Assembly (NCBI GenBank): GCA_041675145.1
Contig: JBAYUK010000002.1
Coordinates: 152,530-216,529 of the forward strand
Length of the DNA stretch: 64,000 bases
DNA from: Patescibacteria group bacterium
Lineage (GTDB): Bacteria; Patescibacteriota; JACPGU01
Reading direction: 5' to 3'
Positions within the stretch are counted from its first letter, which is position 1, and the number at the start of each line of letters is the position of its first letter. Under the pieces are notes generated by a model. The model was not told the origin of the DNA and searched no databases. It saw only the letters and a list, made by a program, of their open reading frames with translations. This document shows, piece by piece, positions 12,874 through 30,010 of the stretch. A program made the translations under genes and the position numbers.

Positions 12874-12910
12874 CATAAAACACGCCAAAAGGCGTGTTTT
12901 ATGATATAAT
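12874..12910 (+). promoter_or_regulatory. conserved hairpin (cataaaacacgc-N5-gcgtgttttatg) fused to extended -10 TGaTATAAT
   Basis: Perfect 12-bp stem; the same stem sequence recurs at 17920, 29145 and 29974. Confidence 0.6.
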
Positions 12911-12930
12911 AAATACAATATGCTCGTAAT

Positions 12931-13677
12931 ATGGATAAAAAAATGATTAGCAAAAAATCTATTCTATATATTAGCGCTCTGACTTTATTGCTAGCAATCA
13001 TAGGTGTTGGGTACTTCCTATCGACAAAAAACTCGCAACCGAGCACAACAATTAATACGCTTACTAACTCTAATGGCAATGATGCCTCCAGTGAGGAAAC
13101 TGAAAAAGAGACGGAGCCAGCTACTAATACTCAGACTATGGCCTCAGAAGACGTCAGCGCACAGACTATCAAAAAACTCCCTCTTGGAGGTAGTGTCTTA
13201 CAGGCAAAAAATAAACCAGGATACGAATACTATATTTGGCGAAACAACGAGATCGCCTATAGCGTATTTCATAATAAAGAAAAAAGTGTTAATGGAAATG
13301 CAGAAGGATTTTTCAGTCTTTCAAAAATAGGTCTTCGCCCTATAGCATTTAAGATTTATAAAGTATCAGAGCCAAGTTTAGAGTCATTTATTCAAAATCG
13401 CTACCATGAAGACGCTTCTGGTAATGGAGGGTATGATGGTCTTTTTAAGCTAAATAATCCAGGCAGTTCATTTGAAGAAGTTAAGCCTTTTGCAAAACCA
13501 CAAGGAGTACAAGATGCTCAATATATAAAAATAGGTCAATATGGCAGCGACTTGATGCAAATACACGAAGTCTGCTATATCTATTTCCACTCATATATAC
13601 TTGAAGGTTCATCTTGTCACTATGACGACTATAGTGATTTTATTAATTCTGGAGCTTTCCGGATCTACAAACTATAA
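12931..13677 (+). CDS. exported hypothetical protein (N-terminal signal anchor, S/T-rich linker)
   Basis: ORF with N-terminal TM/signal; internal overlapping ORF 13004-13330 rejected. Confidence 0.5.
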   Translation: MDKKMISKKSILYISALTLLLAIIGVGYFLSTKNSQPSTTINTLTNSNGNDASSEETEKETEPATNTQTMASEDVSAQTIKKLPLGGSVLQAKNKPGYEYYIWRNNEIAYSVFHNKEKSVNGNAEGFFSLSKIGLRPIAFKIYKVSEPSLESFIQNRYHEDASGNGGYDGLFKLNNPGSSFEEVKPFAKPQGVQDAQYIKIGQYGSDLMQIHEVCYIYFHSYILEGSSCHYDDYSDFINSGAFRIYKL

Positions 13678-13694
13678 GCTCACATAAAATCAAA

Positions 13695-13913
13695 ATGAAC
13701 AATATGATAATATTTGGAATTATTGGCCTACTTGGGATCTCCGCTGCCGTCTGGGTCAAAGATGAAAGACGACAGGATATCCTCTTTATTATCGGCGGTG
13801 CTTTTCTGCTCGCCTACAGCATCTACATTAACGATGCGATCTTCATTGCTCTGCAGATTATTTTTATTGTTTCGACCCTCTTTGAGTTAATTAAGATAAA
13901 TAAAACTAAGTAA
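13695..13913 (+). CDS. small membrane protein
   Basis: 72 aa, two hydrophobic helices. Confidence 0.35.
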   Translation: MNNMIIFGIIGLLGISAAVWVKDERRQDILFIIGGAFLLAYSIYINDAIFIALQIIFIVSTLFELIKINKTK

Positions 13914-13957
13914 CTATAGTTATTACATCGGCTGAGAAATAACGCTCAAGCTCTAAC

Positions 13958-15730
13958 CTAAGTTATTCTAACCTTACTTGCTTCATATAGTTCTCTAAAT
14001 AGGCCGCCATTCCTCTTTAGTTTTTCAAATGGACCGTTCTCAATAATGCATCCATCGCTGAGTACTATAATGGTATCGAATGAGTCGAGCATGGAATATT
14101 TGTGTGTTACATAGAGTAGGGTAAGGTCTGGGTATGCCTTCATGATATTTCCAACGACTTCTCGTTCAGTCTTTGGATCAAGGCTGGCAGTTGCCTCGTC
14201 GAGGATCAAGACGGGGTGATTTTGGAAAAGGGCACGTGCTATACCAATACGCTGTCGCTCTCCGCCAGAGATATTTAACGAACCTTCAAATAGCTGTTCG
14301 TCTACTCCCCTTGGTAATTGATTGATAAATTCCCCAAGACAGCAGATTCTTAGTAGCTCGCTTAGTTCTCCATCACTAGGGGACTCTGAGCTTGACGAGA
14401 TGTTTTCTCGTATGGTACCTCGGAATAGTTGCACTTCCTGCGGAACTATGCTAAAAACATCAACAATATCTTTTCCGTTTAGTTTGCGATACTCAATGTT
14501 ATTGATCGTAACCGATCCTTGGTAATCGGTAATTGCTTTTAATATTACATCGAGTAGGGTTGATTTTCCGCCTCCAGTATGTCCGACAATAGCAATCTTC
14601 TCCTTTTCTTTTATTGTGAAACTAGCGTTGGTTAGATTTTCTCGCTCGTCACGAGAGACTCCTACATTAGACAGAGCAAGCTTTTTAAAACGATCCTTGA
14701 GTAGACCTGTTTTTACTAGAGATTGTCCTTCAAGGGGTATAGCAATCTCTTCGTTGAAGCGCTGGAGTGCCGTCGCTCTTTCAGAGAAACTTTCCAAGTA
14801 GCCCACCAGGGTGCCTATCTGCCCCGATAGTTTACCAACGAAGGCAAGAACAACGGTCATAGTTCCGATGGTGAAGTTTCCGTTCATAACATTCGTCACA
14901 CAGAAAATAAATACCAGGATCATAGTCACTTGTTCTAGTTGTCCATTGTTGTACCATTTGCGTAAGCTGCGTCGAATTACTTCGGTACGTTTTTTATATG
15001 ATTCCTCTATTTTTTCTGCGATATCGGCTTGTTGTTTGGCAAATAAGTTAAGATAGAAGACCGTCTTGAAGTTGTTCAAAAATTCGACAATTCCACCCGT
15101 TAGAGCTTCTTCTTTCTTTGACCATTCTATTCTGGCCTTTTCTTCTCTTCTTCCAAATACGATAACATTTACTATCGAGAGTCCTGAGGTTATAAGGAAA
15201 ATAACCAAAATAAGTGGCTTAATAAATGCAGTAGACATCAGAATACCTATCACTGATCCAACAGAGCTTAAGTAGCGATGGAGGATATCGTCAGTCAGAC
15301 GATATATGCTGTCATATGCAGAATCAATAATCTTTAAAAACACCCCGCGATTTTTTAGTTTAAAGAAATCGATCGGAGCATTTTCGAATAATCGGATCGC
15401 GTCGTTTCTGAAGTCTCGGCCAACTTTGGCTGCGATATTGAGACATTTGGATACTGTAATAATGCTTATTGCGGGAGAGATAAACAAGAACACTACATAT
15501 ATTACCAATAGTGTGTAGAGTTCTCTGGAACTGAAATCTCCGGTAGCTAACGCATCAATAATAGCACCGAAAATAATTGGAGTAGCTATTCCAATACCAA
15601 CGAGAATAGTTTGAATAAAAAACCAAAACCAATAGCTCGGATAGCGATTTATATATCGAATGGTGAGCCTGAGGGCGTATAGGTCGTTTTTTGTCATGAT
15701 TATTTGGATTGTATCATAAGATACCCCCAT
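13958..15730 (-). CDS. ABC exporter, fused permease/ATPase (MsbA-like)
   Basis: Walker A GHTGGGKST, signature LSGGERQRIGIARAL, Walker B ILDEATASLD; six N-terminal TM helices. Confidence 0.9.
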   Translation of the reverse strand: MGVSYDTIQIIMTKNDLYALRLTIRYINRYPSYWFWFFIQTILVGIGIATPIIFGAIIDALATGDFSSRELYTLLVIYVVFLFISPAISIITVSKCLNIAAKVGRDFRNDAIRLFENAPIDFFKLKNRGVFLKIIDSAYDSIYRLTDDILHRYLSSVGSVIGILMSTAFIKPLILVIFLITSGLSIVNVIVFGRREEKARIEWSKKEEALTGGIVEFLNNFKTVFYLNLFAKQQADIAEKIEESYKKRTEVIRRSLRKWYNNGQLEQVTMILVFIFCVTNVMNGNFTIGTMTVVLAFVGKLSGQIGTLVGYLESFSERATALQRFNEEIAIPLEGQSLVKTGLLKDRFKKLALSNVGVSRDERENLTNASFTIKEKEKIAIVGHTGGGKSTLLDVILKAITDYQGSVTINNIEYRKLNGKDIVDVFSIVPQEVQLFRGTIRENISSSSESPSDGELSELLRICCLGEFINQLPRGVDEQLFEGSLNISGGERQRIGIARALFQNHPVLILDEATASLDPKTEREVVGNIMKAYPDLTLLYVTHKYSMLDSFDTIIVLSDGCIIENGPFEKLKRNGGLFRELYEASKVRIT

Positions 15731-15763
15731 TTTTAGTATCCTTTATGATATAATGCACACATT

Positions 15764-16840
15764 ATGGCAATCATTATTTCAAAAAACGGCAAGGATGCGA
15801 AAAAAGTAGATAAGTCTACTTTTGATAGAGAAGACTATCTCCAGCAGTATATTTATGACAATCCGGAAAGCATACCGCTTTATGAGATCAGAGAAGATAT
15901 ACGGATGGTGATTCTAGCTCGCGAGTTTAATACAAATAGTGGTCCTATTGATGCTATTGGATTTGATAAAGACGGAGAAATATACATTGTTGAAACAAAA
16001 CTCTACAAGAATCCAGACAAGAGGACAGTTGTCGCTCAAGCACTAGATTATGGTGCTGCCCTCTGGAGACACGCCAACGATTTTAATGTATTTATCGATA
16101 CACTGAATGCATATACGAGCAAGCATTTCCAGCAAAGCGTACAAGAAAAGTTGCAGAATTTCTATGAGATCTCAGAAGATGAATCGTTAAAGATAGTCGA
16201 AAAAGTTCGAACAAATCTCAACGACGGCATATTTCATTTTGTAGTACTCATGGATCAGCTGAGCGATAGACTCAAAGACCTGGTTGTATATGTGAACCAA
16301 AACAGTCAATTTGATATCTATGCAGTCGAACTCGAATATTATCGTCATGAAGAACATGAAATTATTATTCCAAAGATCTTTGGTGCAGAGGTGAAAAAAG
16401 ACATCAAGGTATCTACCTCAAATAGCGCTCGCAAAAGATGGAGTGAAGACGAACTTCTGAATGCCGCAAAAAGCACATTATCTTCTGAGGGATATGCCGC
16501 CTTTGAAAAGTTGTATGTGTTTTCAAAGGAGCATGCGGATAATGTTAGTTTTGGCACTGGTACATCTTCGGGATCATTTAGTCCTATTTTTAGCAGTGTT
16601 TGCCCACGCTCTCTTTTTACACTTCGCACTAACGGCACACTGAGTCTTAACTTCCAATGGATTAATGGCTACGATGGAGCAGAGGAATTCCGCAGTCTGT
16701 ATTTTGATAAGATGAGGCAAATAGGGTTGGACTTGTTGCCTGCTGATATTGAGAAGTACCCAAATTTTTCATTAGACCAATGGCTGCAATACTCTGACAA
16801 TATCCTCGCCGTGTTGAGTGATATTACGAGGTTAAAATAG
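15764..16840 (+). CDS. PD-(D/E)xK nuclease, RecB-family-like
   Basis: PIDAIGFDKDGEIYIVETK (D..D/E-x-K) followed by QALDY (QxxxY motif). Confidence 0.5.
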   Translation: MAIIISKNGKDAKKVDKSTFDREDYLQQYIYDNPESIPLYEIREDIRMVILAREFNTNSGPIDAIGFDKDGEIYIVETKLYKNPDKRTVVAQALDYGAALWRHANDFNVFIDTLNAYTSKHFQQSVQEKLQNFYEISEDESLKIVEKVRTNLNDGIFHFVVLMDQLSDRLKDLVVYVNQNSQFDIYAVELEYYRHEEHEIIIPKIFGAEVKKDIKVSTSNSARKRWSEDELLNAAKSTLSSEGYAAFEKLYVFSKEHADNVSFGTGTSSGSFSPIFSSVCPRSLFTLRTNGTLSLNFQWINGYDGAEEFRSLYFDKMRQIGLDLLPADIEKYPNFSLDQWLQYSDNILAVLSDITRLK

Positions 16841-16907
16841 TTAACTATCAGGACAGTACCCGACCAATAATGGTCGGGATTGTTACATACACCAAGAGCT
16901 TCACACC

Positions 16908-17819
16908 ATGCTAATTATATTTGTAGTTTTTCTCCAGTCTCTATTGTTCGCTATCTTTAATCTAAATATCCGTAAACTTGAGGAGCAAGGGGTTTCTGCC
17001 CATACCATTGCCGGGCTACAACGGTACGCAGTTATCCCGTCAGCCATGCTTTTGCTAGTAACATATAAGCATGAATATCTCTTGATTCTATTACGAAATC
17101 CCGAGTCTTTTTGGTGGATAGCAGGTATCGCATTTTTTTGGGGTATCGCTCAATATATTGGATATACTGTTATTAATTCAGCAAGCTCTCTTTCTATAGT
17201 AAGTACATTTAGTTCGTTAATAGGAATTCCTGTTATGGTGGCAATGGGCGTGTTAATTAATAATGACTATCCAAACCCTTTAATTATTGTTGCTTTGATG
17301 TTGTTGGTTGTGGCAATTATCATCAAGCCTACTCAACATAATGAAAATAAGCTCCATCTTCTCAAATATAGTTTAATTATGGTTATTAGTCTTGTGTTCA
17401 CGAGCAATGTTGGTCATGCGTTAGACGGGGCTCTCTACAAGAATCTTCTTTATGTACTTGATTCGAGAGCGGTGCTCTTTGGTATCTCGGTTTATACGTT
17501 TGTAACTTCGGCAACATTGGGCGTGATATATCTTTTACCGATATTTAGGAAACCATCAAAAGAAGAACAAGCACTAGTTAAAAAACACTTTTTGGTAGCA
17601 TATTCTATACCTGTTTTTTGGTTTATTGCATCAATTCCAGAAGGATACTCATTTGCAAATCTACCATTATTTACCTTGAGCGCGCTCGGTGCGTTTGGTT
17701 TCCTGATCAAGATGTGTTCTGACCTTACAAATAAACGTCTTGCCTGGAGTTGGCGCACCGCTTTATTCATTGCAATTATTATTGCGAGTATTGTTTTCTC
17801 AGCTCTTTCTTTGCAATAA
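16908..17819 (+). CDS. polytopic membrane protein (about 10 TM), function unknown
   Basis: Hydrophobicity pattern only. Confidence 0.45.
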   Translation: MLIIFVVFLQSLLFAIFNLNIRKLEEQGVSAHTIAGLQRYAVIPSAMLLLVTYKHEYLLILLRNPESFWWIAGIAFFWGIAQYIGYTVINSASSLSIVSTFSSLIGIPVMVAMGVLINNDYPNPLIIVALMLLVVAIIIKPTQHNENKLHLLKYSLIMVISLVFTSNVGHALDGALYKNLLYVLDSRAVLFGISVYTFVTSATLGVIYLLPIFRKPSKEEQALVKKHFLVAYSIPVFWFIASIPEGYSFANLPLFTLSALGAFGFLIKMCSDLTNKRLAWSWRTALFIAIIIASIVFSALSLQ

Positions 17820-17919
17820 CTAATTTTTAATAGACCGAGAACTGCCAGTTACTCCTGGCAGCAGACCGAAAGGTCTATTCCGCCAGGTTAGAAATCGTTC
17901 GAGCCCGAGACGGATCGAA

Positions 17920-17960
17920 CACATAAAACACGCTACAATTAGCGTGTTTTATGTTAAAAT
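17920..17960 (+). promoter_or_regulatory. conserved hairpin (acataaaacacgc-N8-gcgtgttttatgt) + extended -10 TGtTAAAAT; ATG of downstream gene 7 nt after the -10 (leaderless)
   Basis: Same stem as 12874, 29145 and 29974; the -10 ends at 17960 and the ATG is at 17967. Confidence 0.6.
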
Positions 17961-17966
17961 AGAATC

Positions 17967-18440
17967 ATGGAGCCATCAAAATCTCAAAGAAAATACGAAG
18001 AACTTCAACGATCCTGTGCCAGGATAGAGGATCTCTATAAGGGTTTGATTATAAATAATGAAGGGCAGGACACTCTTCAATCACCAAAAGATATCTTACT
18101 GAATTTCTTTAGGGTTTGTTATGAGCTGAAAGAAGCTTTAAAAAGAGATCCTACTCTACCTATAGAATTTAAGGATGGGGTCGAGAAGTTTTGGAAAACT
18201 AATAGATATGCTGCGCTTAGCCTTGATGTTGCCAATCAGGAAAAACATATTACTCTTGGCAGTAATAATAAGTCAGGCCATAGGATTGGTAAGATTAATA
18301 CCCAGATACATTCATTATCACCCGACGGAAAGCCTGATCATACTAGAGTAACTATTGAGATAGATGGTGTGGCACAGGATGGTCTAGATCTGGCTAAGAA
18401 AGTTTTACTGGCTTGGAAGGAACTATATGAAAAGATATAG
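17967..18440 (+). CDS. hypothetical protein (first gene of a two-gene cassette)
   Basis: ORF; the stop overlaps the next start. Confidence 0.5.
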   Translation: MEPSKSQRKYEELQRSCARIEDLYKGLIINNEGQDTLQSPKDILLNFFRVCYELKEALKRDPTLPIEFKDGVEKFWKTNRYAALSLDVANQEKHITLGSNNKSGHRIGKINTQIHSLSPDGKPDHTRVTIEIDGVAQDGLDLAKKVLLAWKELYEKI

Positions 18441-19242
18441 AGTATCAAACTTTTATATAAACACAGAAGGAAATCTGCTAAGAAATTTACCCCAAGGCTT
18501 GGGGCCAGATGATGTGAATTACCAATCTTTTGTTGAAAGATATGGAAAAAGGGATTTTGATCAAAAATTGCAACGATATCTAAGCATTGAGAATCCAGTA
18601 CTTTCTGTAGTACAGGATCACATCCCTTTATTAGAAGAGATTAATAACTCATATGTAGCTGGAAATTTTTATTCATGTTTAACGGCCGCATGTTGTCTTG
18701 GAGAGAGAATATTTAATGATGTATTCTTTGCCATAAACGGCGATCATAAATCTTCTGATTGGTATAGAAAATACTGGAATAAGGGGGTAATACAGAACTG
18801 GCCAGATGGAATTAGTATGTTACATGAATGGAAGGTTATAGATGAAGAAACAAGAAAGAAGTATCTACTGCTCTATAAATTGCGAACCTATTCGGTTCAC
18901 TTTCAGAAAAGTGAACAGGACTTCGAGAAGATGTCGTTTGAGGCTATCGAGATAATTAATTGTATCGTCAGAAGAATATTTGGTATGAATGAGTATAGAA
19001 AGGATATACTTATTCATTTCGAAGTTCCAGGAGAGATATTCATAAGAAAAGGAGCTGAGTTGCTGCCTATAGTAAAAGCGTTTTATATACCCGCATCCCA
19101 CAAGTTGGGATATATGTATAAGGTTGAGTCTACTGCAAATCCGGGCCAATATCAGATCACAGATGACAACGAATACGAAAGCAAAGAAATTACGGACGAA
19201 GAATTTGTAGTTTTAAGGAATAACTTCGTTAGTAATCCTTAG
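18427..19242 (+). CDS. hypothetical protein (second gene of the cassette)
   Basis: ORF; 3' end convergent with and overlapping the recombinase stop. Confidence 0.5.
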   Translation: MKRYRVSNFYINTEGNLLRNLPQGLGPDDVNYQSFVERYGKRDFDQKLQRYLSIENPVLSVVQDHIPLLEEINNSYVAGNFYSCLTAACCLGERIFNDVFFAINGDHKSSDWYRKYWNKGVIQNWPDGISMLHEWKVIDEETRKKYLLLYKLRTYSVHFQKSEQDFEKMSFEAIEIINCIVRRIFGMNEYRKDILIHFEVPGEIFIRKGAELLPIVKAFYIPASHKLGYMYKVESTANPGQYQITDDNEYESKEITDEEFVVLRNNFVSNP

Positions 19243-20567
19243 GATATTCTGAGTATTTCATCCTCTAGTATTATTTTGTTCTTAAAGTTCTTCAATAGCT
19301 CTCGTTTTTCAGCTAGCATACCTTCTTTCAGAATGTACTTCGCATAGTTCTTGATATCTATTTCTGACACATCTACTTTCTTTTGTTTTTCATTATTTCC
19401 CAACACATGTGCTTGAAAGTTTCCGTATCGTTTGAGCTCATGTTTTACGCGTTCGTAAATACCCAGCTCGTTCATATCAATCTGGTCAATAATCTTTATT
19501 AACTCGCTGATAAGGTTAGTCTCATTGATGCTATTGCTGCAGCTCTTGTCTCTGCTTTTCGTGCAGGCATAGTAAATATGCTTATTGAACGACCCATTGA
19601 TCAGTTTCTTATACTTCTCATTAGCGGATATACCTGAGCCACATTTACCGCAGGTAAGTAATCGCGTGAAGGCGAATTCTTTTCCTGTTACTGCTGAGTT
19701 ATATCTTTCCTTGAGACACTTTTGTGCCTCGTCAAAGAGTTCTTTAGATATTAGTGGAGTATGTGCTCCCTGATACCAATTGCCACTTTTCTTCGGGTAT
19801 TCAAAGCTACCGTAGTAGAAGTGATTATTGAGGATGGTGTAGATGTTGCTGAGTGACAAATGTTTTCCGCTACTGGCTCTGAAGTCTTTTTCAAACTTTA
19901 ACCAGGCGTACATCTGTCTCCCGCTTATTCCCTGATACACGACTCGCTCAAATATCTCTCGAATAACTGGTGCTCGTTCCGGATCGAGGACAGGATCGCA
20001 CTTTTTCATTCGGTTAGGGTTGTTGAGGTACCCAGTAGGAGCTCGTGAAGGCCACATACCCATCTCACAGCGGGTTCTTAAACCTCGCTTCACATTCACT
20101 CCCTTGTTATCATTCTCGAGCTTGGCCTGAGAACCGAGGATCATGAGGAGAAACTTCTCATTCGGATTGTTAGAGAACTTTTGTCCGTAGGTTCTAATCT
20201 CAATGATCTTCTTCTGATCCATCATGTCGACGATGGAGCCGAGGTCTCCTGCGTTACGGCTCAAGCGGTCAGGCGCCCAGGTGAGAATAGAATTGTATGT
20301 ACCATTCCGAATACCGGCTATCATTTCGTTAAAGACCGGGCGTTGCCCGGTCTCTTTCGCTGAGTGACTTTCTCGCAAGATGTCGATAATCTCAATACCT
20401 TCTCGTTGGGCCAGGACCATCATCTCCTTGATTTGTGAATCAATGGACAGCGCCTGGCGCTCGTCTGACTCGGTTGACTTCCTCGCATAGAGGCAGTACT
20501 TGGTTTCTTCTGCTATTACGGTACTTGCTTGTGTTTGCATCATATCTAATGAATGACGCGAACCCAC
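19239..20567 (-). CDS. large serine recombinase (integrase)
   Basis: Resolvase catalytic domain YARKSTESDERQ...PDRLSRN, recombinase domain, C-terminal zinc-ribbon CGKCGSG...YYAC. Confidence 0.9.
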   Translation of the reverse strand: MGSRHSLDMMQTQASTVIAEETKYCLYARKSTESDERQALSIDSQIKEMMVLAQREGIEIIDILRESHSAKETGQRPVFNEMIAGIRNGTYNSILTWAPDRLSRNAGDLGSIVDMMDQKKIIEIRTYGQKFSNNPNEKFLLMILGSQAKLENDNKGVNVKRGLRTRCEMGMWPSRAPTGYLNNPNRMKKCDPVLDPERAPVIREIFERVVYQGISGRQMYAWLKFEKDFRASSGKHLSLSNIYTILNNHFYYGSFEYPKKSGNWYQGAHTPLISKELFDEAQKCLKERYNSAVTGKEFAFTRLLTCGKCGSGISANEKYKKLINGSFNKHIYYACTKSRDKSCSNSINETNLISELIKIIDQIDMNELGIYERVKHELKRYGNFQAHVLGNNEKQKKVDVSEIDIKNYAKYILKEGMLAEKRELLKNFKNKIILEDEILRIS

Positions 20568-20908
20568 CCAGTAGTCTAGGCTTATTATTCGTTGCTAATA
20601 AAAGCTCTTCGCAAGGCTCCAGATGTAAGCTAAGATACGTGGACTTTTGCCGTATTCGTGGTAAAATGACTTAACAATTGAGTAGTGCCTAACCCCGAAG
20701 TTTTCGCTTCGGATATGGCGCAAAACCCCCAACCAAGATACTGAACCCCGTGTTCAGCAACTCTTGGTTGGGTCATATCGGGAAACTGATATGGAGTCGC
20801 AAGACTCGGCTGGCGCGGGGCTTAGTGTATCTAAGCGTTGTTGCCAGCTACTTATTATAGAGAGCTGGATTTTTTTATTATTAACGCACAATACTAATAA
20901 CTACATAT

Positions 20909-23189: not shown

Positions 23190-23636
23190 CTATTCTGATA
23201 TGCCCTTTTCCTCTTCAGCCATCTCCTTATGAAGCTTTAGTGCCCATTCTGCGATCGTCTCCGGTGGCGTTTCATTGATGATTATGGAGTGTACTGGAAC
23301 GAATGACTCAACATCTTTTGTAGGTACTTTGGGTGTATACTCCGGGTCTCTGCTCTTAAGCTGAAATACGATAGCCTGCATATTGCCTTCTTTTATCTTT
23401 TGCGTTAAGGCAGACTTAGCAAGATCGTTTAATGCAGCTCTTCCGAGTTTACGCGCCTTGGTTACTTCATCTGCAAGATCCATATCTTCTTCGATCCAGC
23501 GATAGAATGTTGCACGGGAGACGCCTGCCTTTTTGCATACTATGGATATATTGTCGAGTTCACTTAACAAGGCAAGAATCTCTTTCTTGTTTTTAGCAAT
23601 TCTTTTTTGGTCAGTTTTAGCTTTCTTGTCTTCCAT
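23190..23636 (-). CDS. HTH protein resembling phage terminase small subunit
   Basis: CKKAGVSRATFYRWIEED helix-turn-helix near the N-terminus; located next to two DNA methyltransferases as in phage packaging modules. Confidence 0.45.
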   Translation of the reverse strand: MEDKKAKTDQKRIAKNKKEILALLSELDNISIVCKKAGVSRATFYRWIEEDMDLADEVTKARKLGRAALNDLAKSALTQKIKEGNMQAIVFQLKSRDPEYTPKVPTKDVESFVPVHSIIINETPPETIAEWALKLHKEMAEEEKGISE

Positions 23637-24381
23637 GAGCTTTTTTACCCGTTAACTTTTCCCACCGTTGAACGATCGTAGCGCAGTACTCCAAATCCTG
23701 CTCGACCATAACACACTTCCGCTTCGTATGCTCGCACGCAACTATTGTGGTTCCTGATCCACCGAATGGGTCGTACACCACATCTCCCACCTCAGTGCAG
23801 TTTAGAATGAGCTTACGAATGAGGCCGACTGGCTTCATGGTGGGGTGGAGCTTGCTCTGTTGTGGCTTGGGCGCAAACAACACCGACTTATCTTTACTAT
23901 GCTTGAAGTCATGCGTACCATACCAGCCATAGAGGATTAGTTCGTGTTGCGGGAGATAGTCAAGTCGACCAATGACAGGTTTGTCTTTGACCCAAATAAG
24001 CAACTGCGCTACTTTGATCTTCATATCTACGCAGGCTTGGCGCAGGGCAAAGACCATCTTGTCTGAATTGAAGATGTAGATACTATTCTTCTTCGTGAGA
24101 TACGGCAGCGCGGGACCAAGCCACCCTTGCGTAAAGGTCGCGTACTGCGCATCTGACATATGCCCGTCATTTTGGATATCTTTATCTTTGGATACTTTTT
24201 GTAAATCTCGCTTGCTGGCGACATAGTCGATACCGTACGGCGGATCCGTGATAATAGCGTTGATCTTGCCATCTTTCAGGATAGCCTTCAGATCTAAGGT
24301 ACTGGCATCCCCACAGACTAAGGTGTGGTCACCGAGCTGGATAATATCCCCGGACTTAATTGAGTTTGATGGCTGTGTCAT
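23617..24381 (-). CDS. DNA (N6-adenine/N4-cytosine) methyltransferase, beta class
   Basis: Motif IV IITDPPYGIDY before motif I VYDPFGGSGTT; start placed at MTQPS (24381) with GGGAGAA upstream rather than the longer ORF from 24438. Confidence 0.85.
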   Translation of the reverse strand: MTQPSNSIKSGDIIQLGDHTLVCGDASTLDLKAILKDGKINAIITDPPYGIDYVASKRDLQKVSKDKDIQNDGHMSDAQYATFTQGWLGPALPYLTKKNSIYIFNSDKMVFALRQACVDMKIKVAQLLIWVKDKPVIGRLDYLPQHELILYGWYGTHDFKHSKDKSVLFAPKPQQSKLHPTMKPVGLIRKLILNCTEVGDVVYDPFGGSGTTIVACEHTKRKCVMVEQDLEYCATIVQRWEKLTGKKAHGRQES

Positions 24382-25630
24382 TGGTAAGGTTCTCCCAGCG
24401 GTTAATAATAAGTTGGCAAAAAACAGGACTTTGCTCAATCAGATACGCGACACGCTTTAGTTGTTCGCAGGCGAGCAAAGTTGAGCCACTCCCACCGAAT
24501 AGATCGAGTACCGTATCGCCGATCTTGGTACAGCGCATCAGCGGTCGCTCGTGTAAAGTGAGTGGCTTCTGGGTGGGGTGATTGTAGTCGTCACTCGCAT
24601 CTCGCTTAACCAACCAAATGTCGATCAGGTCGGCGACATCATCAAGAGTGGCATTGCCAATGCCGACTTCAGTATTTAAGATCTCCGCAAACTTGGTATG
24701 TTTATCCGACAAGTACGGTTTTCCCACCGTGCCATAGACACACGGTTCATACAACTTCGAGAAGGCTATCTGCGGAGTCGGATTAATACCGTTCTTAATC
24801 CACAAACACGTCCGTTGGTATTTGATTCCCAGCTCCTCGTATACCGATTGCACCATCCCGACGTAGCGCTCATCACACCACCAGAATAGATGCGTATCTT
24901 TTTGCGCAACACCCAGGGCGTTACCTAAAGTCTGCTTCGTAAAGAGTCGGAACGCATCGTCGGACAAGGAATCGTTAACTGCGCCACCATAGTTAGCTTT
25001 GCCGCCAATCCCTTTGTTATAGTCGAGGCTAATATTGTATGGGCTGTCGCAATACACCATATGTACTCGTGTTTCGCCAACTAACTTTTGTACAGCTTCC
25101 ATGTCGGTGCTATCTCCGCACAGTAACCGGTGATTGCCCAGCTGAAACAGGTCACCGGACTGGATGTCTGTAGTTAGCGCTTTCTCGATCTCTTCCTCCT
25201 CATTGAAGCTGTCGTCTTCCAATTCCAGAACATCGTCCCAGATACTGGAAAGATCGGTATCGTCAAAGCCGATATCGAGTAAGAATTCGGTATCGAATTC
25301 CTTGAGGAGATCAAAATTCCACGAACCCGTATTGCGGTTGGAGCGCAGTAAATATTCGTCGAATTCTTTTTGATCAAGTAATCGACTCGGTACTCGCACA
25401 TCGATTAGTTCTTCGCCACGACCCAGTTCACGCAGGATAAAGAGTCGTTGGTGACCAGCAATCACTGTGTTATCTAAGTTGATCGCTGGAATTTCAACGA
25501 GGTCAAACTTCGTAATACTTTTTGTCAGATCCTTTTTCTGCTGCGCGCTCAAGGTACGCGGGTTCTTGGAATAGGGCACCAAATCTGAGACTTTACGTTT
25601 TTCTGTGTGCCACTGAATAGATTTTTTCAT
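24356..25630 (-). CDS. ParB-N-like domain fused to DNA methyltransferase
   Basis: N-terminal ParB-like nuclease domain (...IAGHQRL...), CDSPYNISLDY (DPPY-type) and LDLFGGSGSTL; start at MKKSIQW (25630) preceded by AGGAGA SD; the longer ORF start at 25675 lies inside an upstream terminator hairpin. Confidence 0.85.
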   Translation of the reverse strand: MKKSIQWHTEKRKVSDLVPYSKNPRTLSAQQKKDLTKSITKFDLVEIPAINLDNTVIAGHQRLFILRELGRGEELIDVRVPSRLLDQKEFDEYLLRSNRNTGSWNFDLLKEFDTEFLLDIGFDDTDLSSIWDDVLELEDDSFNEEEEIEKALTTDIQSGDLFQLGNHRLLCGDSTDMEAVQKLVGETRVHMVYCDSPYNISLDYNKGIGGKANYGGAVNDSLSDDAFRLFTKQTLGNALGVAQKDTHLFWWCDERYVGMVQSVYEELGIKYQRTCLWIKNGINPTPQIAFSKLYEPCVYGTVGKPYLSDKHTKFAEILNTEVGIGNATLDDVADLIDIWLVKRDASDDYNHPTQKPLTLHERPLMRCTKIGDTVLDLFGGSGSTLLACEQLKRVAYLIEQSPVFCQLIINRWENLTNDTAIKLN

Positions 25631-25654
25631 AATATATTCTCCTAAATTTACCAA

Positions 25655-25730
25655 TAAAAAATGCCCACTCTGCAAAATAACAAACCAGGAAGATTTACTC
25701 CCTAAATTTATTTTTCTGCAAAGTGGGCAC
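25655..25730 (-). terminator. large-loop intrinsic terminator for the 117-aa gene
   Basis: Inverted arms atgcccactctgcaaaata / ttttctgcaaagtgggcac followed on the minus strand by TTTTTTATT. Confidence 0.5.
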
Positions 25731-25805
25731 GACCGAGGCGAAGCCTCTCTGGTGTCTTACGACACCTTCTATCACCCGAAGGTGAAATACGTGATACTCA
25801 CTGTG

Positions 25806-26159
25806 TTATCTACTGCTCGATTGTAAAAATGCTGTCAACTCGTTAGGGCGATGTGCCTTCAGAAATTCTATCGCATCTTTTCCAAGAAATACCGGCGCGC
25901 CACCCTCCGGCATACGAATACGAAGTTTTTTACCTTGTTTCTTTGCCAAAGCATGGGCACGTTCAATCTCAGGATTATGGAAAATAACTCGAACCGTATC
26001 TTTACTACCCTCGATCTGCTTGATGTCCGTACTATACGCACGCTGTTCTGTCTTGGTATTGATCGATCGCTCAATAACGCGACCAACAGATTTTGGTTTG
26101 CGCGGCAGCTGAACATTCAGCTCGAGGTCATAAATGTATACATCGATAAACTCTTCCAT
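25806..26159 (-). CDS. hypothetical protein, divergent from the repressor gene
   Basis: ORF only. Confidence 0.45.
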   Translation of the reverse strand: MEEFIDVYIYDLELNVQLPRKPKSVGRVIERSINTKTEQRAYSTDIKQIEGSKDTVRVIFHNPEIERAHALAKKQGKKLRIRMPEGGAPVFLGKDAIEFLKAHRPNELTAFLQSSSR

Positions 26160-26267
26160 ATCCGTATACTAGCACGAAGGGAAAGTGGGTGTCAAGCGTG
26201 AAACATATGTTACGGCTCTTTACGAAAAAGTTATTGAAAGTTCAAAAAAGTATGTTATTATTCAAGT

Positions 26268-26918
26268 ATGAATCCTATCCAAAATGAATTGATGACCCTA
26301 GCCAAAGACCACGATCTCGGTAAAATGAGTTATCGTCAGATAGCAAAACTGATCGGAAAAGAAGGCAGGCCTCAGCTAGTGAAGCATCATCTTGAACAAC
26401 TTGATAGGCAGGGATTAATGCAGGTCAATCTGAAAGAAAAGGTAATTCGCCTGGTCAAGAAAGGGTTCAATAAAACTAAAACAGAAAATTCGTTTTACTC
26501 GTTACCAATTGTTGGTTCGGCGAATTGTGGTCCAGCTACCATATTCGCTGACGAGAGCGTCCAGGGATATTTGAGAGTTTCAGCAAATGTGTTACCTCGA
26601 AAAAAACAGGACCTGTATGTGCTCGTAGCAGATGGCGGATCAATGGATCGGGCTTCTCTTAAAAAAGGAGGTCCTACTATTGAGGATGGCGATTTCGTGG
26701 TTGTAGATAGCTCAAAAGTCAGTCCAAAAGATGGTGAAGTTGTGGTGGCGGTTATTGATCGCATGGCGACTATTAAGCGCTACAAAAAAGATCCAAAGAA
26801 TCACCGCATTATCCTTCAGCCCGAATCAACAGAGAACTATTTCCCAATCATTGTGCAGCAAGGTGATAACTTTCAAGTCAGCGGAACAGTCATCGACATC
26901 ATCAAGAAAGCAAAGTAA
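26268..26918 (+). CDS. LexA/CI-like repressor (winged HTH + S24 peptidase domain)
   Basis: N-terminal HTH YRQIAKLIGK...; C-terminal VADGGSMD (Ser nucleophile) and ...ATIKRY (Lys). Confidence 0.75.
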   Translation: MNPIQNELMTLAKDHDLGKMSYRQIAKLIGKEGRPQLVKHHLEQLDRQGLMQVNLKEKVIRLVKKGFNKTKTENSFYSLPIVGSANCGPATIFADESVQGYLRVSANVLPRKKQDLYVLVADGGSMDRASLKKGGPTIEDGDFVVVDSSKVSPKDGEVVVAVIDRMATIKRYKKDPKNHRIILQPESTENYFPIIVQQGDNFQVSGTVIDIIKKAK

Positions 26919-26966
26919 TTTTGCCTATGGTCGATATTATTAGTAGTGATTAGAAAGGTGGTATTC

Positions 26967-27107
26967 ATGACTAACACTAAAAAGGTGAAGTTGCCAAAAA
27001 GTGCTGTGACCGGACGTATCGTAACATCGGCATATGCAAAGGCACATCCAAACACAACCGTTTTCCAAACAGTTGTGAAGAAGCAAGCATCAGGTAAGAA
27101 AAAATAA
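26967..27107 (+). CDS. small basic protein (46 aa), hypothetical
   Basis: AAAGGTGG SD-like sequence 7 nt upstream of ATG; not in the ORF track because it is under 60 aa. Confidence 0.3.
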   Translation: MTNTKKVKLPKSAVTGRIVTSAYAKAHPNTTVFQTVVKKQASGKKK

Positions 27108-27198
27108 ACAGGCTGAATGGGAAAAGTTATCGAGTAGTACGCGTTTGAGAAGATTGTTTCTTTATCTTCAATTACGGCCGAAAGGTATGCCTGCCCAT

Positions 27199-27228
27199 CA
27201 GAAATCGATCTGCAAGGATCGATTTCTG
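27199..27228 (+). promoter_or_regulatory. perfect 12-bp inverted repeat CAGAAATCGATC-N6-GATCGATTTCTG, candidate operator
   Basis: 35 nt upstream of the 27263 gene start, no T-tract, contains two GATC sites. Confidence 0.4.
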
Positions 27229-27262
27229 ATTCAAATCATATCTACCCTATAAATATTAACTT

Positions 27263-28210
27263 ATGGCAAACAAGAAGTTTTTAGAAGAATATCCACTATA
27301 CAAGAAGTATGAAACCGCATGGAATCAGGAAGAGCACGACTATTCATGGATGACCCTCGGTAAGCTTCCCGAACCAGCGATCCATATGTATTGCACTGTT
27401 TGTGATTCTGATCAAACATTCAATATGCGTAACGAGTATTATGACGATAGCTATATGGGGCTTGAGAGGAATAATACAGAATTTCAAAAGTATGCCGAGG
27501 AGGTGAAGTTAGTATATTGTGAGAAAATTCCTGCAGCAGGAAAGGTGCTCCGGAGTGACTATTTGTGTTCGGCTTGCGGTAAAGGGAGGATGATATTCCT
27601 TATTTATTTCTTTAGGGAAAAGATTGGTTCAAGATCTGTTCTATGCATGATGAAGGTTGGCCAAACTCCTCCTTGGAGCATAGTAGTAAATAAAGAGATG
27701 GAGAAGCTTTTGGGTAGTAACGCAGAGCACTATAAGAAAGGGTTGATTTGTGAATCACAGTCTTACGGTATTGGTGCATACGCCTATTTCAGAAGAATCA
27801 CCGAGACTATTATTGATGAACTATTGGACTCTATTTCGGATTTGTTAGAAGGTAAAGAAAAGGAGCTATATGCTGATGCGCTTGCAAAAACGAAAGCCAC
27901 TCGAGTGACTCAAGATAAGATAGATTTAGTTAAACACCTGTTGCCAGTTTCTTTACGACCTGACGGTCTTAATCCGCTTGATATTCTTCATTCTGCGCTG
28001 AGTCAAGGGCTACACGTAGAAGACGATGAGGTATGTCTAGAACAAGCAGAGGCCATAAAGAAGGTATTGGTCTTTCTAGTCAGCCAGATTATTAAGAAGA
28101 AAGATGAAGCCAAGGAATTTACTAAAGGCATGAGAGAGATACTAAACAAGAAGTCGAAACCTACCGTTGTTGAGGATGGGAAAGAAAAAAAGGCAGATGA
28201 ATCAGAATAG
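27263..28210 (+). CDS. hypothetical protein with N-terminal Cys4 zinc-ribbon-like motif
   Basis: CTVCDSD...CSACGKG; lysine-rich C-terminus. Confidence 0.5.
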   Translation: MANKKFLEEYPLYKKYETAWNQEEHDYSWMTLGKLPEPAIHMYCTVCDSDQTFNMRNEYYDDSYMGLERNNTEFQKYAEEVKLVYCEKIPAAGKVLRSDYLCSACGKGRMIFLIYFFREKIGSRSVLCMMKVGQTPPWSIVVNKEMEKLLGSNAEHYKKGLICESQSYGIGAYAYFRRITETIIDELLDSISDLLEGKEKELYADALAKTKATRVTQDKIDLVKHLLPVSLRPDGLNPLDILHSALSQGLHVEDDEVCLEQAEAIKKVLVFLVSQIIKKKDEAKEFTKGMREILNKKSKPTVVEDGKEKKADESE

Positions 28211-28291
28211 TTATTATGTGGCTATAATAAGCTATTTAAGTCAATAATTACTTACTCTCAAAAATGAGTCAGAGGTGTCTCATTTGTCTCA

Positions 28292-28492
28292 TTTACCCTA
28301 GACCGAGACCCCTCAGATTACATAACTTAAAACCTACTGGAAAAGCCCTCAACTGACCCGATTATGGAGGTTATAGACCGAGACTGCCAGCTTTCCAGGG
28401 CACCCGACCGAGAGGGGTCAGGAGCCCTACTAGGCTACAGAGTTTCTCTAAAGTCTAGATAAGAAAAACCATCCGAAAGGATGGTTTTTCTT
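28292..28492 (+). repeat. copy C of the island repeat family
   Basis: Full 5' and 3' modules; 3' module identical to copy E over 45 nt; terminator ccatccgaaaggatgg + T-tract. Confidence 0.85.
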
Positions 28493-28517
28493 ATGGCATT
28501 CAGGGCTATATGGGCAA

Positions 28518-28982
28518 TTAAGCTATCAACATTCTGTAGTGATCTTCCCAAAGCACATAGTCTTTGTCTCTACCTTCTCGTGGTAGGTCATTGATTTCAC
28601 CTTTAGTTAGGAATATAAGCTCGTCGTGATCTGGACTGAGCTGTATCTCCGGCTCTTTATCTAGTTCTATAGTAAAAGCAAACTTTGTTTTATGCTTATT
28701 GGTCTCGATATTATGGAATTCAAATATGCCGAGCGGTTGAAGCTTTTCAGGTAAAACTACGATACCTGCTTCTTCAAATAGCTCTCGTACAGCTGCATGC
28801 GTCAGCTCCTCAGATTCATCGACTGAACCACCAGGTATCTCGAGTATTCCAGAACATGAGTCTGTAGCCGATCGTTTTAATAAAAGGAACCTGTCTTGCC
28901 ATTGCACTCGTATGCACGCACCGATGTTGTGACCAGCACTAATTGCTGATTCTAATTTTTCTTTAAAATTGTTACCCGACAT
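28518..28982 (-). CDS. NUDIX hydrolase
   Basis: Nudix box GGSVDESEELTHAAVRELFEEAGI. Confidence 0.85.
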   Translation of the reverse strand: MSGNNFKEKLESAISAGHNIGACIRVQWQDRFLLLKRSATDSCSGILEIPGGSVDESEELTHAAVRELFEEAGIVVLPEKLQPLGIFEFHNIETNKHKTKFAFTIELDKEPEIQLSPDHDELIFLTKGEINDLPREGRDKDYVLWEDHYRMLIA

Positions 28983-29024
28983 ATAGATTTATTGTAAGTA
29001 TAGCTTGCACTATTATAGCACTAT

Positions 29025-29145
29025 TTTTGTATCACTCTATACCGAGATCCTTCAGATTGCGTAACTTACAACCTACCGGAAAAGCCTTCGACTGACCCGG
29101 TTGTGAAATTTCTGGAGCGAGGTAGCCCACCCGACCGTGAGGGGT
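29025..29145 (+). repeat. copy D of the island repeat family (divergent, 3' module truncated and fused to the hairpin/-10 element)
   Basis: taccgagatccttcagattgcgtaacttacaacctaccggaaaagccttcgactgacccggttgtg ... cccacccgaccgtgaggggttagtgcc. Confidence 0.7.
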
Positions 29146-29181
29146 TAGTGCCTCATAAAACACGCATAAAGGCGTGTTTTA
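29145..29181 (+). promoter_or_regulatory. conserved hairpin (cataaaacacgc-N5-gcgtgttttatg) + extended -10 TGgTATAGT
   Basis: Same 12-bp stem as 12874, 17920 and 29974. Confidence 0.6.
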
Positions 29182-29220
29182 TGGTATAGTAGTACTATAA
29201 GTTATACAACTCAACCTTAT

Positions 29221-29904
29221 ATGAAGAAGCTGTCGAATGTTACACTACTCGGGATAGATTGTATTAATATTGAAAGACTTCAAAAAGCCTTAGATATCTC
29301 TTCTCTGAATATTGAATTTGGTGAAGTCAAACTACTTACTTCACTACCAACAGAAGATTCAAGAAAAGTAGAAATTCCTCATATTGGATCAATAGAAGAT
29401 TTTTCAAAGTTCTCAATTTGTGATTTATATAAATACGTAAGCACGGACTATGTTTTGTTGGTTCAGTATGATGGTTTTGTTTTGAATCCAGACTCTTGGA
29501 ACGACGAATTCTTAAAATACGACTATATTGGAGCCCCATGGCTTGTAGCGGACTGGGCAACTAAAAATTTTGATTTCCCAGAGGAGCTACTAGGAACTTG
29601 GATTGTGGGAAATGGAGGATTTTCTTTAAGAAGCAAGAAGTTTCTAGAAACTAGTAGTCGCCTCGCTAAAGAAGGAGCTTTTAAAAAGTATCACCCAGAA
29701 GATGTAGTTATGTGTGTATGGGATAGAGACAAGCTTGAGAAAGAAGGAATAAAGTTTGCGCCAGTAGATATTGCTAAACAGTTTAGTATTGAGGGAGATG
29801 ATGATGTCTATGATAAACAGTTCGGTTTCCATAGCTTAAAATGGACAAATATTCAAAAATGGATTGATGACAACTCGAAGTGGACTATAAAGCTAGTTCA
29901 ATAA
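29221..29904 (+). CDS. hypothetical protein (GNGGFSLR motif, possibly DUF5672-like)
   Basis: ORF; motif WIVGNGGFSLRSKKF. Confidence 0.45.
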   Translation: MKKLSNVTLLGIDCINIERLQKALDISSLNIEFGEVKLLTSLPTEDSRKVEIPHIGSIEDFSKFSICDLYKYVSTDYVLLVQYDGFVLNPDSWNDEFLKYDYIGAPWLVADWATKNFDFPEELLGTWIVGNGGFSLRSKKFLETSSRLAKEGAFKKYHPEDVVMCVWDRDKLEKEGIKFAPVDIAKQFSIEGDDDVYDKQFGFHSLKWTNIQKWIDDNSKWTIKLVQ

Positions 29905-29973
29905 CCTATTAACCTAGAAATACGAGACGTAATTCAAGGTGCCTAAGGTACTATATTGATAGGGTTAAGGATT

Positions 29974-30010
29974 CATAAAACACGCCAGAAAGCGTGTTTT
30001 ATGATATAAT
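29974..30010 (+). promoter_or_regulatory. conserved hairpin + extended -10 TGaTATAAT; ATG 7 nt downstream (leaderless)
   Basis: Stem cataaaacacgc/gcgtgttttatg; the -10 ends at 30010 and the ATG(MNISIRD) is at 30017. Confidence 0.6.

Follow-up and report, generated by a model that had tools for sequence, protein, structure and literature searches.

Intrinsic bidirectional terminators consist of a GC stem-loop with a U-tract on the 3' side and a complementary A-tract on the 5' side, and they are located just after stop codons. Extended -10 promoters of the sigma-70 type (TRTGn-TATAAT, the '-16 region') are best known from Gram-positive bacteria. Leaderless mRNAs are found in Actinobacteria, Deinococcus and archaea, where the -10 box lies about 7 nt before the start codon. 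Near-identical short palindromic intergenic sequences upstream of unrelated genes make up the Correia, ERIC, REP and REPIN families, and terminator or promoter activity has been described for Correia, ERIC and REPIN elements. The core sites of tyrosine recombinases (loxP, FRT, dif/pdif) are comprised of inverted arms of 11-13 bp and differing spacers of 6-8 bp; a GC core next to the spacer with A/T tracts pointing outward is not the signature of known Xer or Cre sites.

The window analysed here, 64,000 nt of a Patescibacteria contig of at least 300 kb, contains a hairpin family, H, which shares features with these systems. An exact pattern search of the window for CATAAAACACGC-N6/8-GCGTGTTTTATG gave four matches, all on the + strand (Table 1), and none in 100 dinucleotide-preserving shuffles. 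The four identical stems with different loops described in an earlier note are thus present, although two of the starts given there, 17920 and 29145, are corrected to 17922 and 29154. The stem is 12 bp long and its GC core, ACACGC/GCGTGT, is flanked by an A-tract and a T-tract. The loops of copies 1 to 4 are 6, 8, 6 and 6 nt long and all differ; in copies 1 and 2 pairing runs on into the loop, which leaves tetraloops. Folded as RNA, the four hairpins have energies between -17.8 and -19.8 kcal/mol (z-scores between -5.5 and -8.1). Logan contigs and the ENA contig are base-for-base equal to the window over all four copies, and the end-extension loci of the ENA contig agree exactly with the window ends. 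Because the two directly compared assemblies agree, the copies are not an assembly artefact. Chance-level hits aside, the H units and the R repeat, a larger repeat of about 200 nt, matched no family among the Rfam covariance models at E<=5.

Table 1. Coordinates of the H copies and of associated features in the window
Feature	Position	Strand	Remarks
Gene upstream of H1, 104-aa membrane protein	12512-12826		stop 48 nt before H1
H1 upstream box GACCATGTAGGGTCAGTGACA	12853..12873	+	resembles R-repeat core CCGACCGAGAGGGGTCAG; repeat family D4
H1 hairpin CATAAAACACGC-CAAAAG-GCGTGTTTTATG	12874..12903	+	-19.8 kcal/mol
H1 extended -10 TGaTATAAT	12902..12910	+	hexamer 12905-12910; predicted transcription start near 12917
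Hairpin-free promoter string TTTATGATATAAT	15746..15754	+	9 nt before ATG at 15764
Structured stretch, three small hairpins	17833..17920	+	directly upstream of H2; z = -8.3
H2 hairpin, loop TACAATTA	17922..17953	+	perfect pairing 17921-17954, 15 bp, tetraloop
H2 extended -10 TGtTAAAAT	17952..17960	+	hexamer 17955-17960; 6 nt, then ATG 17967 of 157-aa ORF; predicted leaderless
Truncated R repeat	29026..29153	+	83% identity to R over 102 nt; family D2
H3 hairpin, loop ATAAAG	29154..29183	+	divergent intergenic region, NUDIX gene (-) / DUF5672 gene (+)
H3 extended -10 TGgTATAGT	29182..29190	+	hexamer 29185-29190; DUF5672 ATG 29221, 30 nt past hexamer
H4 hairpin, loop CAGAAA	29974..30003	+	pairing spans 29973-30004; 70 nt after DUF5672 stop 29904
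H4 extended -10 TGaTATAAT	30002..30010	+	hexamer 30005-30010; 6 nt, then ATG 30017, GNAT acetyltransferase; predicted leaderless
Unrelated terminator hairpin AAAAGACCCCA-GTGA-TGGGGTTTTTT	40776..40818	+	then TGgTAAAAT, 6 nt, ATG 40825 (RNA methyltransferase)
tRNA-Glu terminator ATAAAACCCGC-ATCAG-GCGGGTTTTAT	41820..41846	+	one compensated pair differs from H; no -10 after

H is probably a small family of four terminator-plus-promoter junctions, private to its lineage, in an accessory or defence-type island of an uncultivated, deep-branching member of the Patescibacteria (CPR). The hairpin would first end the transcript of the upstream gene, or a structured RNA derived from R in the case of copies 2 and 3. 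The final TATG of its 3' arm would then serve a second purpose, as the -16 TRTG/TG element of a promoter of the extended -10 type that needs no -35 box. Transcription would restart 7 nt past the hexamer, on the ATG itself in two copies and 14-24 nt before it in the remaining two. Like the Correia, ERIC and REP-type repeats, such junctions could rewire or insulate transcription.

Three of the four copies sit 48-103 nt after a co-directional stop codon, the largest distance being that of copy 2 from the gene of a 303-aa membrane protein. Copy 3 has no co-directional gene upstream and is preceded only by the truncated R repeat in a divergent intergenic region. UUUUAU directly follows GCGUGU in all four copies. 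In its GC stem-loop, 3' U-tract, complementary 5' A-tract and, for three copies, position just after stops, H resembles intrinsic bidirectional terminators and is predicted to be an intrinsic, potentially bidirectional terminator itself; it differs from them in that a 12-bp stem is repeated identically four times, in that the end of the stem also forms part of a promoter, and in that copy 3 has no upstream gene to terminate. H was not flagged by a generic terminator scan, which counts a T-run only after the full 12-bp stem. The other strong hairpins of the genome are perfect palindromes of 10-16 bp of the same A-tract/GC-core/T-tract form, in agreement with the terminator design proposed earlier for H, and long perfect palindromes of this form are, to judge from sequence, the usual terminators of the genome. 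The structured stretch before copy 2 opens with TAGACCGAGA, like R, and is a candidate sRNA or 3'-UTR element that the hairpin would terminate.

As the earlier note had stated, the 3' arm runs straight into an extended -10 box in all four copies. The TG at the end of the arm opens the string TGnTAnAnT, whose register is the same in each copy. The TG and positions T1, A2 and T6 of the hexamer are invariant, and changes occur only at n and at hexamer positions 3 and 5. This pattern of conservation is the one that a working promoter would be expected to show, and the reading that hairpin and extended -10 were inherited as one unit with a fixed register is supported. The last four bases of the arm, TATG, match the -16 promoter motif of the genome. 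TA precedes TGnTAnnnT at 10 of 26 promoter-proximal sites compared with 18 of 195 sites elsewhere, and the string TTTATGATATAAT occurs at 15746 with no hairpin; both observations indicate that the TATG of the arm belongs to the promoter consensus of the genome. The H promoters have no recognisable -35 box, and a promoter scan that needs one did not flag them. H is thus similar to the known extended -10 promoters in its TATGnTAnAnT string, a motif enriched at other starts in the genome, and differs from them in that the -16 element is built into the base pairs that close a terminator hairpin and in that its putative activity would be with a CPR RNA polymerase.

The genes downstream of the four promoters are all on the same strand, with gaps of 6, 6, 20 and 30 nt between hexamer and start codon. 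At 17967 and 30017 the ATG begins at the 7th nt after the hexamer, and leaderless mRNAs are predicted from both, as had been proposed; the starts at 12931 and 29221 do not have this spacing, so that only two of the four copies qualify. The prediction fits a strong genome-wide signal. In the 83 kb examined, the 6-nt gap is found at 8 of 80 genes, as against 0.5% of 2366 control ATGs (P~1e-8), and the Shine-Dalgarno (SD) core GGAG/GAGG is found at only 8 of the 80 gene starts. At other CPR loci the same spacing is seen in 5 of 50 genes (P~8e-6) and SD sequences are nearly absent, whereas a Firmicutes control has the spacing in 0 of 45 genes and an SD in 24 of 45. The likeness to the leaderless mRNAs of Actinobacteria, Deinococcus and archaea extends to two genes, both SD-less; the host here belongs to the Patescibacteria, for which no description of leaderless initiation was found in the literature searched. 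The gene after copy 1 starts at 12931 (12943 in the ENA annotation), 20 nt after the hexamer, and would have a short SD-less leader. The DUF5672 mRNA is predicted to start at about 29197, with an SD-less leader of about 24 nt. A small 8-codon ATG is also present at 12920, downstream of the -10 box of copy 1.

Fusion to a -10 box and a leaderless start, which the earlier note had taken to be properties of this family, are not specific to H. Six of the eight genes with the 6-nt gap have no H element. Hairpins outside the family abut a -10 box at 8830, 10408 and about 40776, and the junction at 40776 has the H architecture with a different sequence. At the locus of a relative, L068 (64% GltX), tRNA-Gln is followed by a 17-bp perfect palindrome, TGaTACAGT, 6 nt and the ATG of TspO. 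The terminator/-10 fusion with leaderless starts is the usual arrangement between genes in this genome and also at other CPR loci. H is an ordinary kind of element in the form of a local family.

All 24 stem bases are identical across the four copies. Between copies, only 3-5 of the 6-9 loop positions and 3-15 of the 24 nt upstream are identical, the lowest upstream value being that of copies 2 and 4. Given this frozen stem beside drifting flanks, selection for structure only would have to make the stem change more than 10-fold slower than the flanks, a requirement that is only just plausible for the 6-bp core and less demanding for the outer 7 bp with their dual use. Dual use of the stem as U-tract, A-tract, TRTG and pairing partner would slow its divergence. 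The stem may in addition serve as a recognition site for a protein, and in its stronger form this idea makes the palindrome an operator, at which a dimeric DNA-binding protein on the 12-bp arms (about -43 to -14 from the predicted transcription start) would co-repress the four promoters, the terminator shape being secondary. The identity of the stem, while R terminators of the same genome covary freely (five fully compensated pair changes among three copies), and the identical register to the -10 box in all four copies both favour an operator. The spacing of the half-sites, however, varies (6, 8, 6 and 6 nt), and the loops of copies 1 and 2 have changed in a way that lengthens the pairing, which suits a hairpin and not a duplex site. 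None of the copies has an HTH or regulator gene next to it, the genes that follow them have no function in common, and other promoters in the 83 kb show neither isolated half-sites nor degenerate sites. The U-tract and the TRTG motif already explain the outer 7 bp. The protein-binding site offered earlier as an alternative finds no support here and is unlikely as the chief role of the palindrome.

The four copies are singletons in a 17-kb stretch of an accessory-gene island that adjoins gltX and tRNA-Gln. Their neighbours encode membrane proteins, a NUDIX hydrolase, DUF5672 and GNAT proteins and products of unknown function, and the genes that follow the copies are neither homologous, with different Pfam families or none, nor related in function. 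All copies lie at boundaries of gene modules in this variable island by a tRNA gene, copies 3 and 4 enclose a single gene, that of DUF5672, and L068 holds a completely different island at the equivalent position. These features, together with conserved, perfectly inverted 12-bp arms and a 6-8-bp spacer that is different in each copy, are those expected if H were the core site of a site-specific recombinase of the lox/FRT/dif/pdif type bounding shufflable cassettes, with distinct spacers preventing deletion between direct sites. Such a role is nevertheless very unlikely. The 83 kb encode no tyrosine recombinase, their sole recombinase being the large serine type of an integrated element. No structural polymorphism or rearrangement was observed, as the ENA and Logan assemblies are collinear and 100% identical where compared. 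The GC core of H adjoins the spacer and the A/T tracts point outward, which is the signature of a terminator, and the element was not found in multiple copies in 185,579 species genomes.

Mobility has also to be considered. H is a palindrome that lies between genes, constant in its stem and variable in its loop, and precedes genes that are not homologous; in some pairs, such as copies 2 and 4, the flanks are unrelated and the shared unit is approximately the palindrome plus the -10 box. Small repeats that carry promoters have precedent (PMC3575422). H could thus be a REP-like or hairpin-mobilised miniature element with a unit of about 40-60 nt, copied for example by a Y1/HUH enzyme, its terminator and promoter activity being incidental. 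This is quite improbable, as there are only four copies, all in the same 17 kb, and the remaining 66 kb of the 83 kb examined contain no further one. No inverted doublets, conserved GTAG-type tetranucleotide or visible target-site duplications were found, and no RAYT or IS200-like gene is present in the 83 kb. REP/REPIN elements are dispersed in high copy number, often as inverted doublets, whereas H is present in the 83 kb as four clustered singletons. The MITE/Correia type has terminal inverted repeats, a duplication and a length of 100-400 nt, and differs from H, a unit of about 41-63 nt whose edges show no duplication. The very low copy number, the clustering and the lack of terminal inverted repeats and, in the 83 kb, of a partner transposase likewise set H apart from Correia, ERIC and REP-type repeats. 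Putative mobile promoters are defined by an identity of 80% or more across 50 nt or more in front of genes that are not homologous (PMC3575422; Matus-Garcia/Nijveen 2012). The pairwise identity of the H unit is 55-78% over about 63-65 nt, and beyond the 41-nt core it falls below the thresholds for all of these families.

The preferred reading, a local family of terminator-plus-promoter junctions, would instead trace the four copies back to a single ancestral junction, itself related to the R repeat at its 3' end, that spread locally along with rearrangements of the island. H is not the independent second family that it had been taken for. Copy 3 is fused to the truncated R, which is followed by an R-core remnant, CACCCGACCGTGAGGGGTTAGTGCCT, joined directly to the hairpin. 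A GGGTYAG box that resembles the R core is found upstream of copies 1, 3 and 4. In the R copy at 10211, TATAAT lies 13 nt after the loop, as far as in H. The hairpin after tRNA-Glu, previously listed as a related copy, is present and reaches 21.8 bits (E~0.01) with a model built from the four H copies; it may be at best a distant relative of H, or convergent.

The pattern CATAAAACACGC-N4-10-GCGTGTTTTATG has four exact matches in the window, all on the + strand, and none of 100 dinucleotide-preserving shuffles of the window contained a match. The four-copy hairpin repeat reported in the earlier note is thus real; two of the start positions given there were right and the other two were displaced by 2 and 9 nt. 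Each copy (H1 to H4) is a hairpin with an identical 12-bp stem and a variable loop that runs into an extended -10 box. Over all four copies the Logan contigs from SRR6484325 match the window at 100% identity, and the ENA contig agrees exactly at both window ends, so that the copies are not assembly artefacts. The hairpins have folding energies as RNA of -17.8 to -19.8 kcal/mol, and the outer loop bases of H1 and H2 are also paired, which leaves tetraloops.

Positions of the hairpin repeat H, the repeat R and neighbouring features in the window
Feature	Position	Strand	Remark
H1	12874-12903	+	loop CAAAAG
H2	17922-17953	+	loop TACAATTA
H3	29154-29183	+	loop ATAAAG
H4	29974-30003	+	loop CAGAAA
R	10211-10440		~200-nt repeat copy
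R	12274-12480		~200-nt repeat copy
R	28287-28494		~200-nt repeat copy
Truncated R	29026-29153		runs straight into H3
R 3' module alone	8508-8610		after tRNA-Gln
Defence-like protein	15764-16840		PADLOC PDC-S11/S18 match, NucS-like nuclease region
Defence-like AAA_15/AAA_21 ATPase	32078-32869		PtuA/AriA/GajA type
ORF pair (157 aa, predicted leaderless; 271 aa)	17967-19242		14-nt overlap at 18427-18440
Integrated element	~19.2-27 kb		45% GC vs 39%
Large serine recombinase	19239-20567	-	in integrated element
LOOT RNA	20686-20807	+	RF03000, 88.7 bits

The same window contains another repeat, R, of about 200 nt. The 5' 100 nt of R are nearly identical between copies, and the predicted fold comprises a P1-like closing helix (TCTAGAC...GTCTAGA) and a long core hairpin. 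Every full copy ends in a putative perfect-palindrome terminator of its own. The hairpins had been described as a second repeat family, but this independence is not borne out: H3 is fused to a truncated R, and the 12-20 nt before H1, H3 and H4 (GGGTCAGTG, GGGTTAGTG and GGGTTAAGG) resemble the R core GAGGGGTCAGGAG. In the R copy at 10211, TATAAT starts 13 nt past the loop, the same distance as in H. Because of the fusion at H3, the shared upstream box and this spacing, H appears to be a variant 3' end of R, a putative terminator and promoter, rather than a separate family. The 88 nt directly before H2 fold very stably (z = -8.3) and begin like R. Neither H nor R has an Rfam family at the gathering or E-value threshold. 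R is where Logan contigs of the same strain break; it could be a non-coding RNA family or the att-site remnants of island accretion at tRNA-Gln. Three other identities were rejected. R or H as the 3' guide-like RNA of a repeated TnpB/IscB-type protein is contradicted by the proteins before the R copies, which are mutually unrelated and have no Pfam match to such a nuclease. An integron would not fit, as R and H do not lie between every gene, most intergenic gaps from 30 to 37 kb are shorter than 25 nt, and an attC-like R'/R'' core is lacking. A riboswitch or leader was discarded since a convergent gene comes after the R copy at 28287 and the hairpin stands before the -10 box, not after it.

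The explanation favoured here, held with somewhat better than even confidence, is that H is a small lineage-private family of terminator and extended -10 junctions which would derive from the R 3' end, would insulate single-gene transcription units in an accessory island, and would give leaderless or short mRNAs lacking a Shine-Dalgarno (SD) sequence. The earlier note had suggested either a propagated terminator-promoter cassette or a palindromic protein-binding site at the -35 position. Its observation stands; its interpretation is supported in part, and the architecture turns out to be the norm of the genome. When perfect stems of at least 8 bp were sought in 83 kb (the window and 10 kb on each side), nearly all intergenic hairpins were long perfect palindromes made of an A-tract, a short GC core and a T-tract. 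Several of those unrelated to H adjoin a -10 box, at 8830 (TTAATTATAAT), 10408 (TATAAT) and about 40776, the last being followed by TGgTAAAAT, 6 nt and the ATG at 40825. The relative with a 64%-identical GltX (L068) has, after its tRNA-Gln, a 17-bp perfect palindrome, TGaTACAGT, 6 nt and the ATG of TspO. Perfect palindromes of 10-16 bp, A/T tracts included, make up many of the intergenic terminator-like hairpins (for example 579-609, 8578-8610, 8830-8856, 27197-27230 and 28459-28494), and the L066/L065 extensions add further examples.

In every H the last bases of the 3' arm are TG, and nTAnAnT comes next (TGaTATAAT, TGtTAAAAT, TGgTATAGT and TGaTATAAT for H1 to H4). Because TA precedes TG at 10 of 26 TGnTAnnnT sites lying no more than 60 nt upstream of starts, versus 18 of 195 elsewhere, the TATG that closes the H stem is read as the genome's putative -16 (TRTG-type) promoter motif. 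The gene at 15764 is preceded, with no hairpin at all, by TTTATGATATAAT, its putative promoter. The first base of the ATGs at 17967 and 30017 is the 7th after the hexamer, and the start codons of the remaining two H genes lie 20 and 30 nt past it. In a crude set of 80 ORFs, eight genes have a good -10 box (5 or more of 6 positions matching, A2 and T6 among them) whose end lies exactly 6 nt upstream of the start codon, as compared with 0.5% of 2366 control ATGs (P~9e-9), so that the leaderless starts proposed for 17967 and 30017 are statistically well supported. Six of the eight have no H (gltX at 6960, 26268, 32881, 40825, 50631 and 55107), and GGAG or GAGG occurs at -18 to -5 of only 8 of the 80 starts.

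Similar counts were obtained from loci fetched originally for other reasons (for Patescibacteria, or CPR, a subset of L004-L046). The 6-nt spacing was found in 5 of 50 genes of other CPR loci (P~8e-6) and 3 of 43 of Saccharibacteria loci (P~0.002), with SD cores in 4 of 50 and 2 of 43, respectively; Firmicutes loci had 0 of 45 and 24 of 45. The predicted leaderless starts are a trait of the lineage, not of the hairpin. This genome, the L068 relative and a dozen unrelated CPR loci have almost no SD cores, and in all of them -10 boxes at exactly 6 nt from the ATG are in sharp excess, apparently a leaderless, SD-poor design of initiation across CPR. The literature searched yielded no description of leaderless or SD usage in Patescibacteria. 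If the pattern holds, leaderless and SD-less initiation should be built into gene callers and expression designs for Patescibacteria, and this by-product is possibly weightier than the H family itself. H is a small local repeat of ordinary parts (putative terminator, extended -10 promoter and leaderless start), of value because it shows clearly how an ultra-compact CPR genome may fit a terminator and the promoter that follows into about 45 nt, with no 5' UTR.

The invariance of the stem calls for separate consideration. Its 24 bases do not vary among H1 to H4, whereas 3-5 of 6-9 loop bases and 3-15 of the 24 nt upstream are identical. Termination alone would not freeze a stem in this genome, because the putative terminator stems of the three R copies, whose bodies are mostly identical in alignment, have five fully compensated pair changes. 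In these diverged terminators the changes, an indel pair among them, are fully compensated, so that the palindromes remain perfect; this hints that inverted repeats are kept perfect by a DNA-level process, such as template switching. Double duty of the outer 7 bp, as A-tract, U-tract and TRTG promoter element, explains part of the freeze. The only arbitrary part of the stem is the 6-bp core ACACGC, for which zero change needs evolution about 6-8 times slower than in the flanks (a rough estimate); for paired positions this is borderline but not implausible. A sequence-specific reader of the stem, be it a regulator, a recombinase or an RNA-binding protein, may exist but is not required.

It is judged improbable that the arms are recognition sites of a lineage-specific protein (recombinase or regulator) and delimit, together with R, exchangeable single-gene cassettes in the accessory or defence island beside tRNA-Gln. 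Such boundaries would parallel pdif modules or attC sites, on a terminator-promoter scaffold, and would point to cassette exchange or co-regulation in CPR accessory islands. An operator of a DNA-binding regulator would fit the register to the -10 box, which is constant in all four copies; the half-site spacing, however, varies (6 vs 8), the loop changes extend the pairing, and no DNA-binding gene adjoins any copy, the downstream genes being unrelated. The 12-bp arms around all-different 6-8-bp spacers at module boundaries resemble a recombinase core site, but 83 kb contain no tyrosine recombinase and the assemblies show no rearrangement. These assemblies offer no strain polymorphism that could reveal insertion, excision or conversion: the Logan contigs compared by BLAST are 100% identical to the window, and the ENA loci carry the same genes in collinear order. 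Like a REP or MITE-like mobile unit, H is an extragenic palindrome that precedes unrelated genes, but it occurs only as four clustered singletons and lacks a target duplication, no Y1 gene is present in 83 kb, and its copies are less identical than the published threshold for putative mobile promoters demands (PMC3575422).

A covariance model built from the four 63-nt H units found only H1 to H4 at high score; the next match was the tRNA-Glu terminator (21.8 bits, E~0.01) and the rest were at noise level. The extra 19 kb outside the window contain no further H, and the 10 kb on either side no further R. A scan of 185,579 species, one genome each, for the 22-base core ATAAAACACGC-N4-10-GCGTGTTTTAT gave 46 single-copy matches in unrelated genomes. 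Among them are a conserved terminator of Sediminibacterium and about 11 CPR genomes, the latter being about a third of the matches outside Sediminibacterium. An extended -10 happens to follow in two CPR matches. Since the scan gave no multi-copy genome and none with the full unit, the H family appears private to this lineage; the bare hairpin is a common CPR-style putative terminator, and ATAAAA-core-loop-core-TTTTAT fits a generic form of it. Neither a copy of H nor the 5' domain of R occurs in viral contigs; two 17-mers there that match the R core were dismissed as chance. The full 24-nt pattern has 16 loci in JGI metagenomes, a collection that does not contain the source genome. One (L050/L057) is an ordinary terminator between convergent genes; most lie in GC-rich, ORF-poor DNA with a large unrelated palindrome family. 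These palindromes of about 45 nt, CGAACAC(A/G)TAAAACACGCCC-loop-GGGCGTGTTTTA(T/C)GTGTTCG, are many, dispersed or tandem (L047, L049, L051-L053, L055, L056, L058 and L060-L062; contigs QDKV01*, Ga0307508, Ga0307514 and Ga0137380), and are probably a eukaryotic (fungal?) repeat family that apparently has the 12-nt arm in common with H by chance. The extra CGAACA on the 5' side of H2 also occurs in them.

The window falls within the 300-kb ENA metagenome contig k141_1391779 of ERZ27247358, and an identical GltX is encoded on a 366-kb JGI contig. Because GltX has one relative at 64% identity (L068) and all others are at 54% or less, where named from assorted Patescibacteria lineages, the organism is placed, by this protein, in a sparsely sampled, deep CPR lineage. 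H1 to H4 lie within a run of small accessory genes at 8.5-38 kb, mostly on the + strand, just past gltX and tRNA-Gln, which includes LigT, DUF6176, an ABC exporter, the PDC-S11/NucS-like protein, NUDIX, DUF5672, GNATs, Ham1, an NTPase and the AAA_15/21 ATPase, the last with no obvious partner nuclease. At the post-tRNA-Gln position L068 has an entirely different island (TspO, a type I restriction-modification system and a KAP NTPase); its intergenic DNA is not alignable to the window, and L068 contains neither R nor H. The run is broken by the integrated element, which also encodes N6/N4 methyltransferases, an SNase-domain protein and an S24 (CI/LexA-like) peptidase. The LOOT RNA adjoins the large serine recombinase and is thereby placed on a mobile element of a Patescibacteria genome. 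The overlapping 157-aa and 271-aa ORFs, with no match in Pfam, NCBIfam or PADLOC, form a two-gene module directly before this element.
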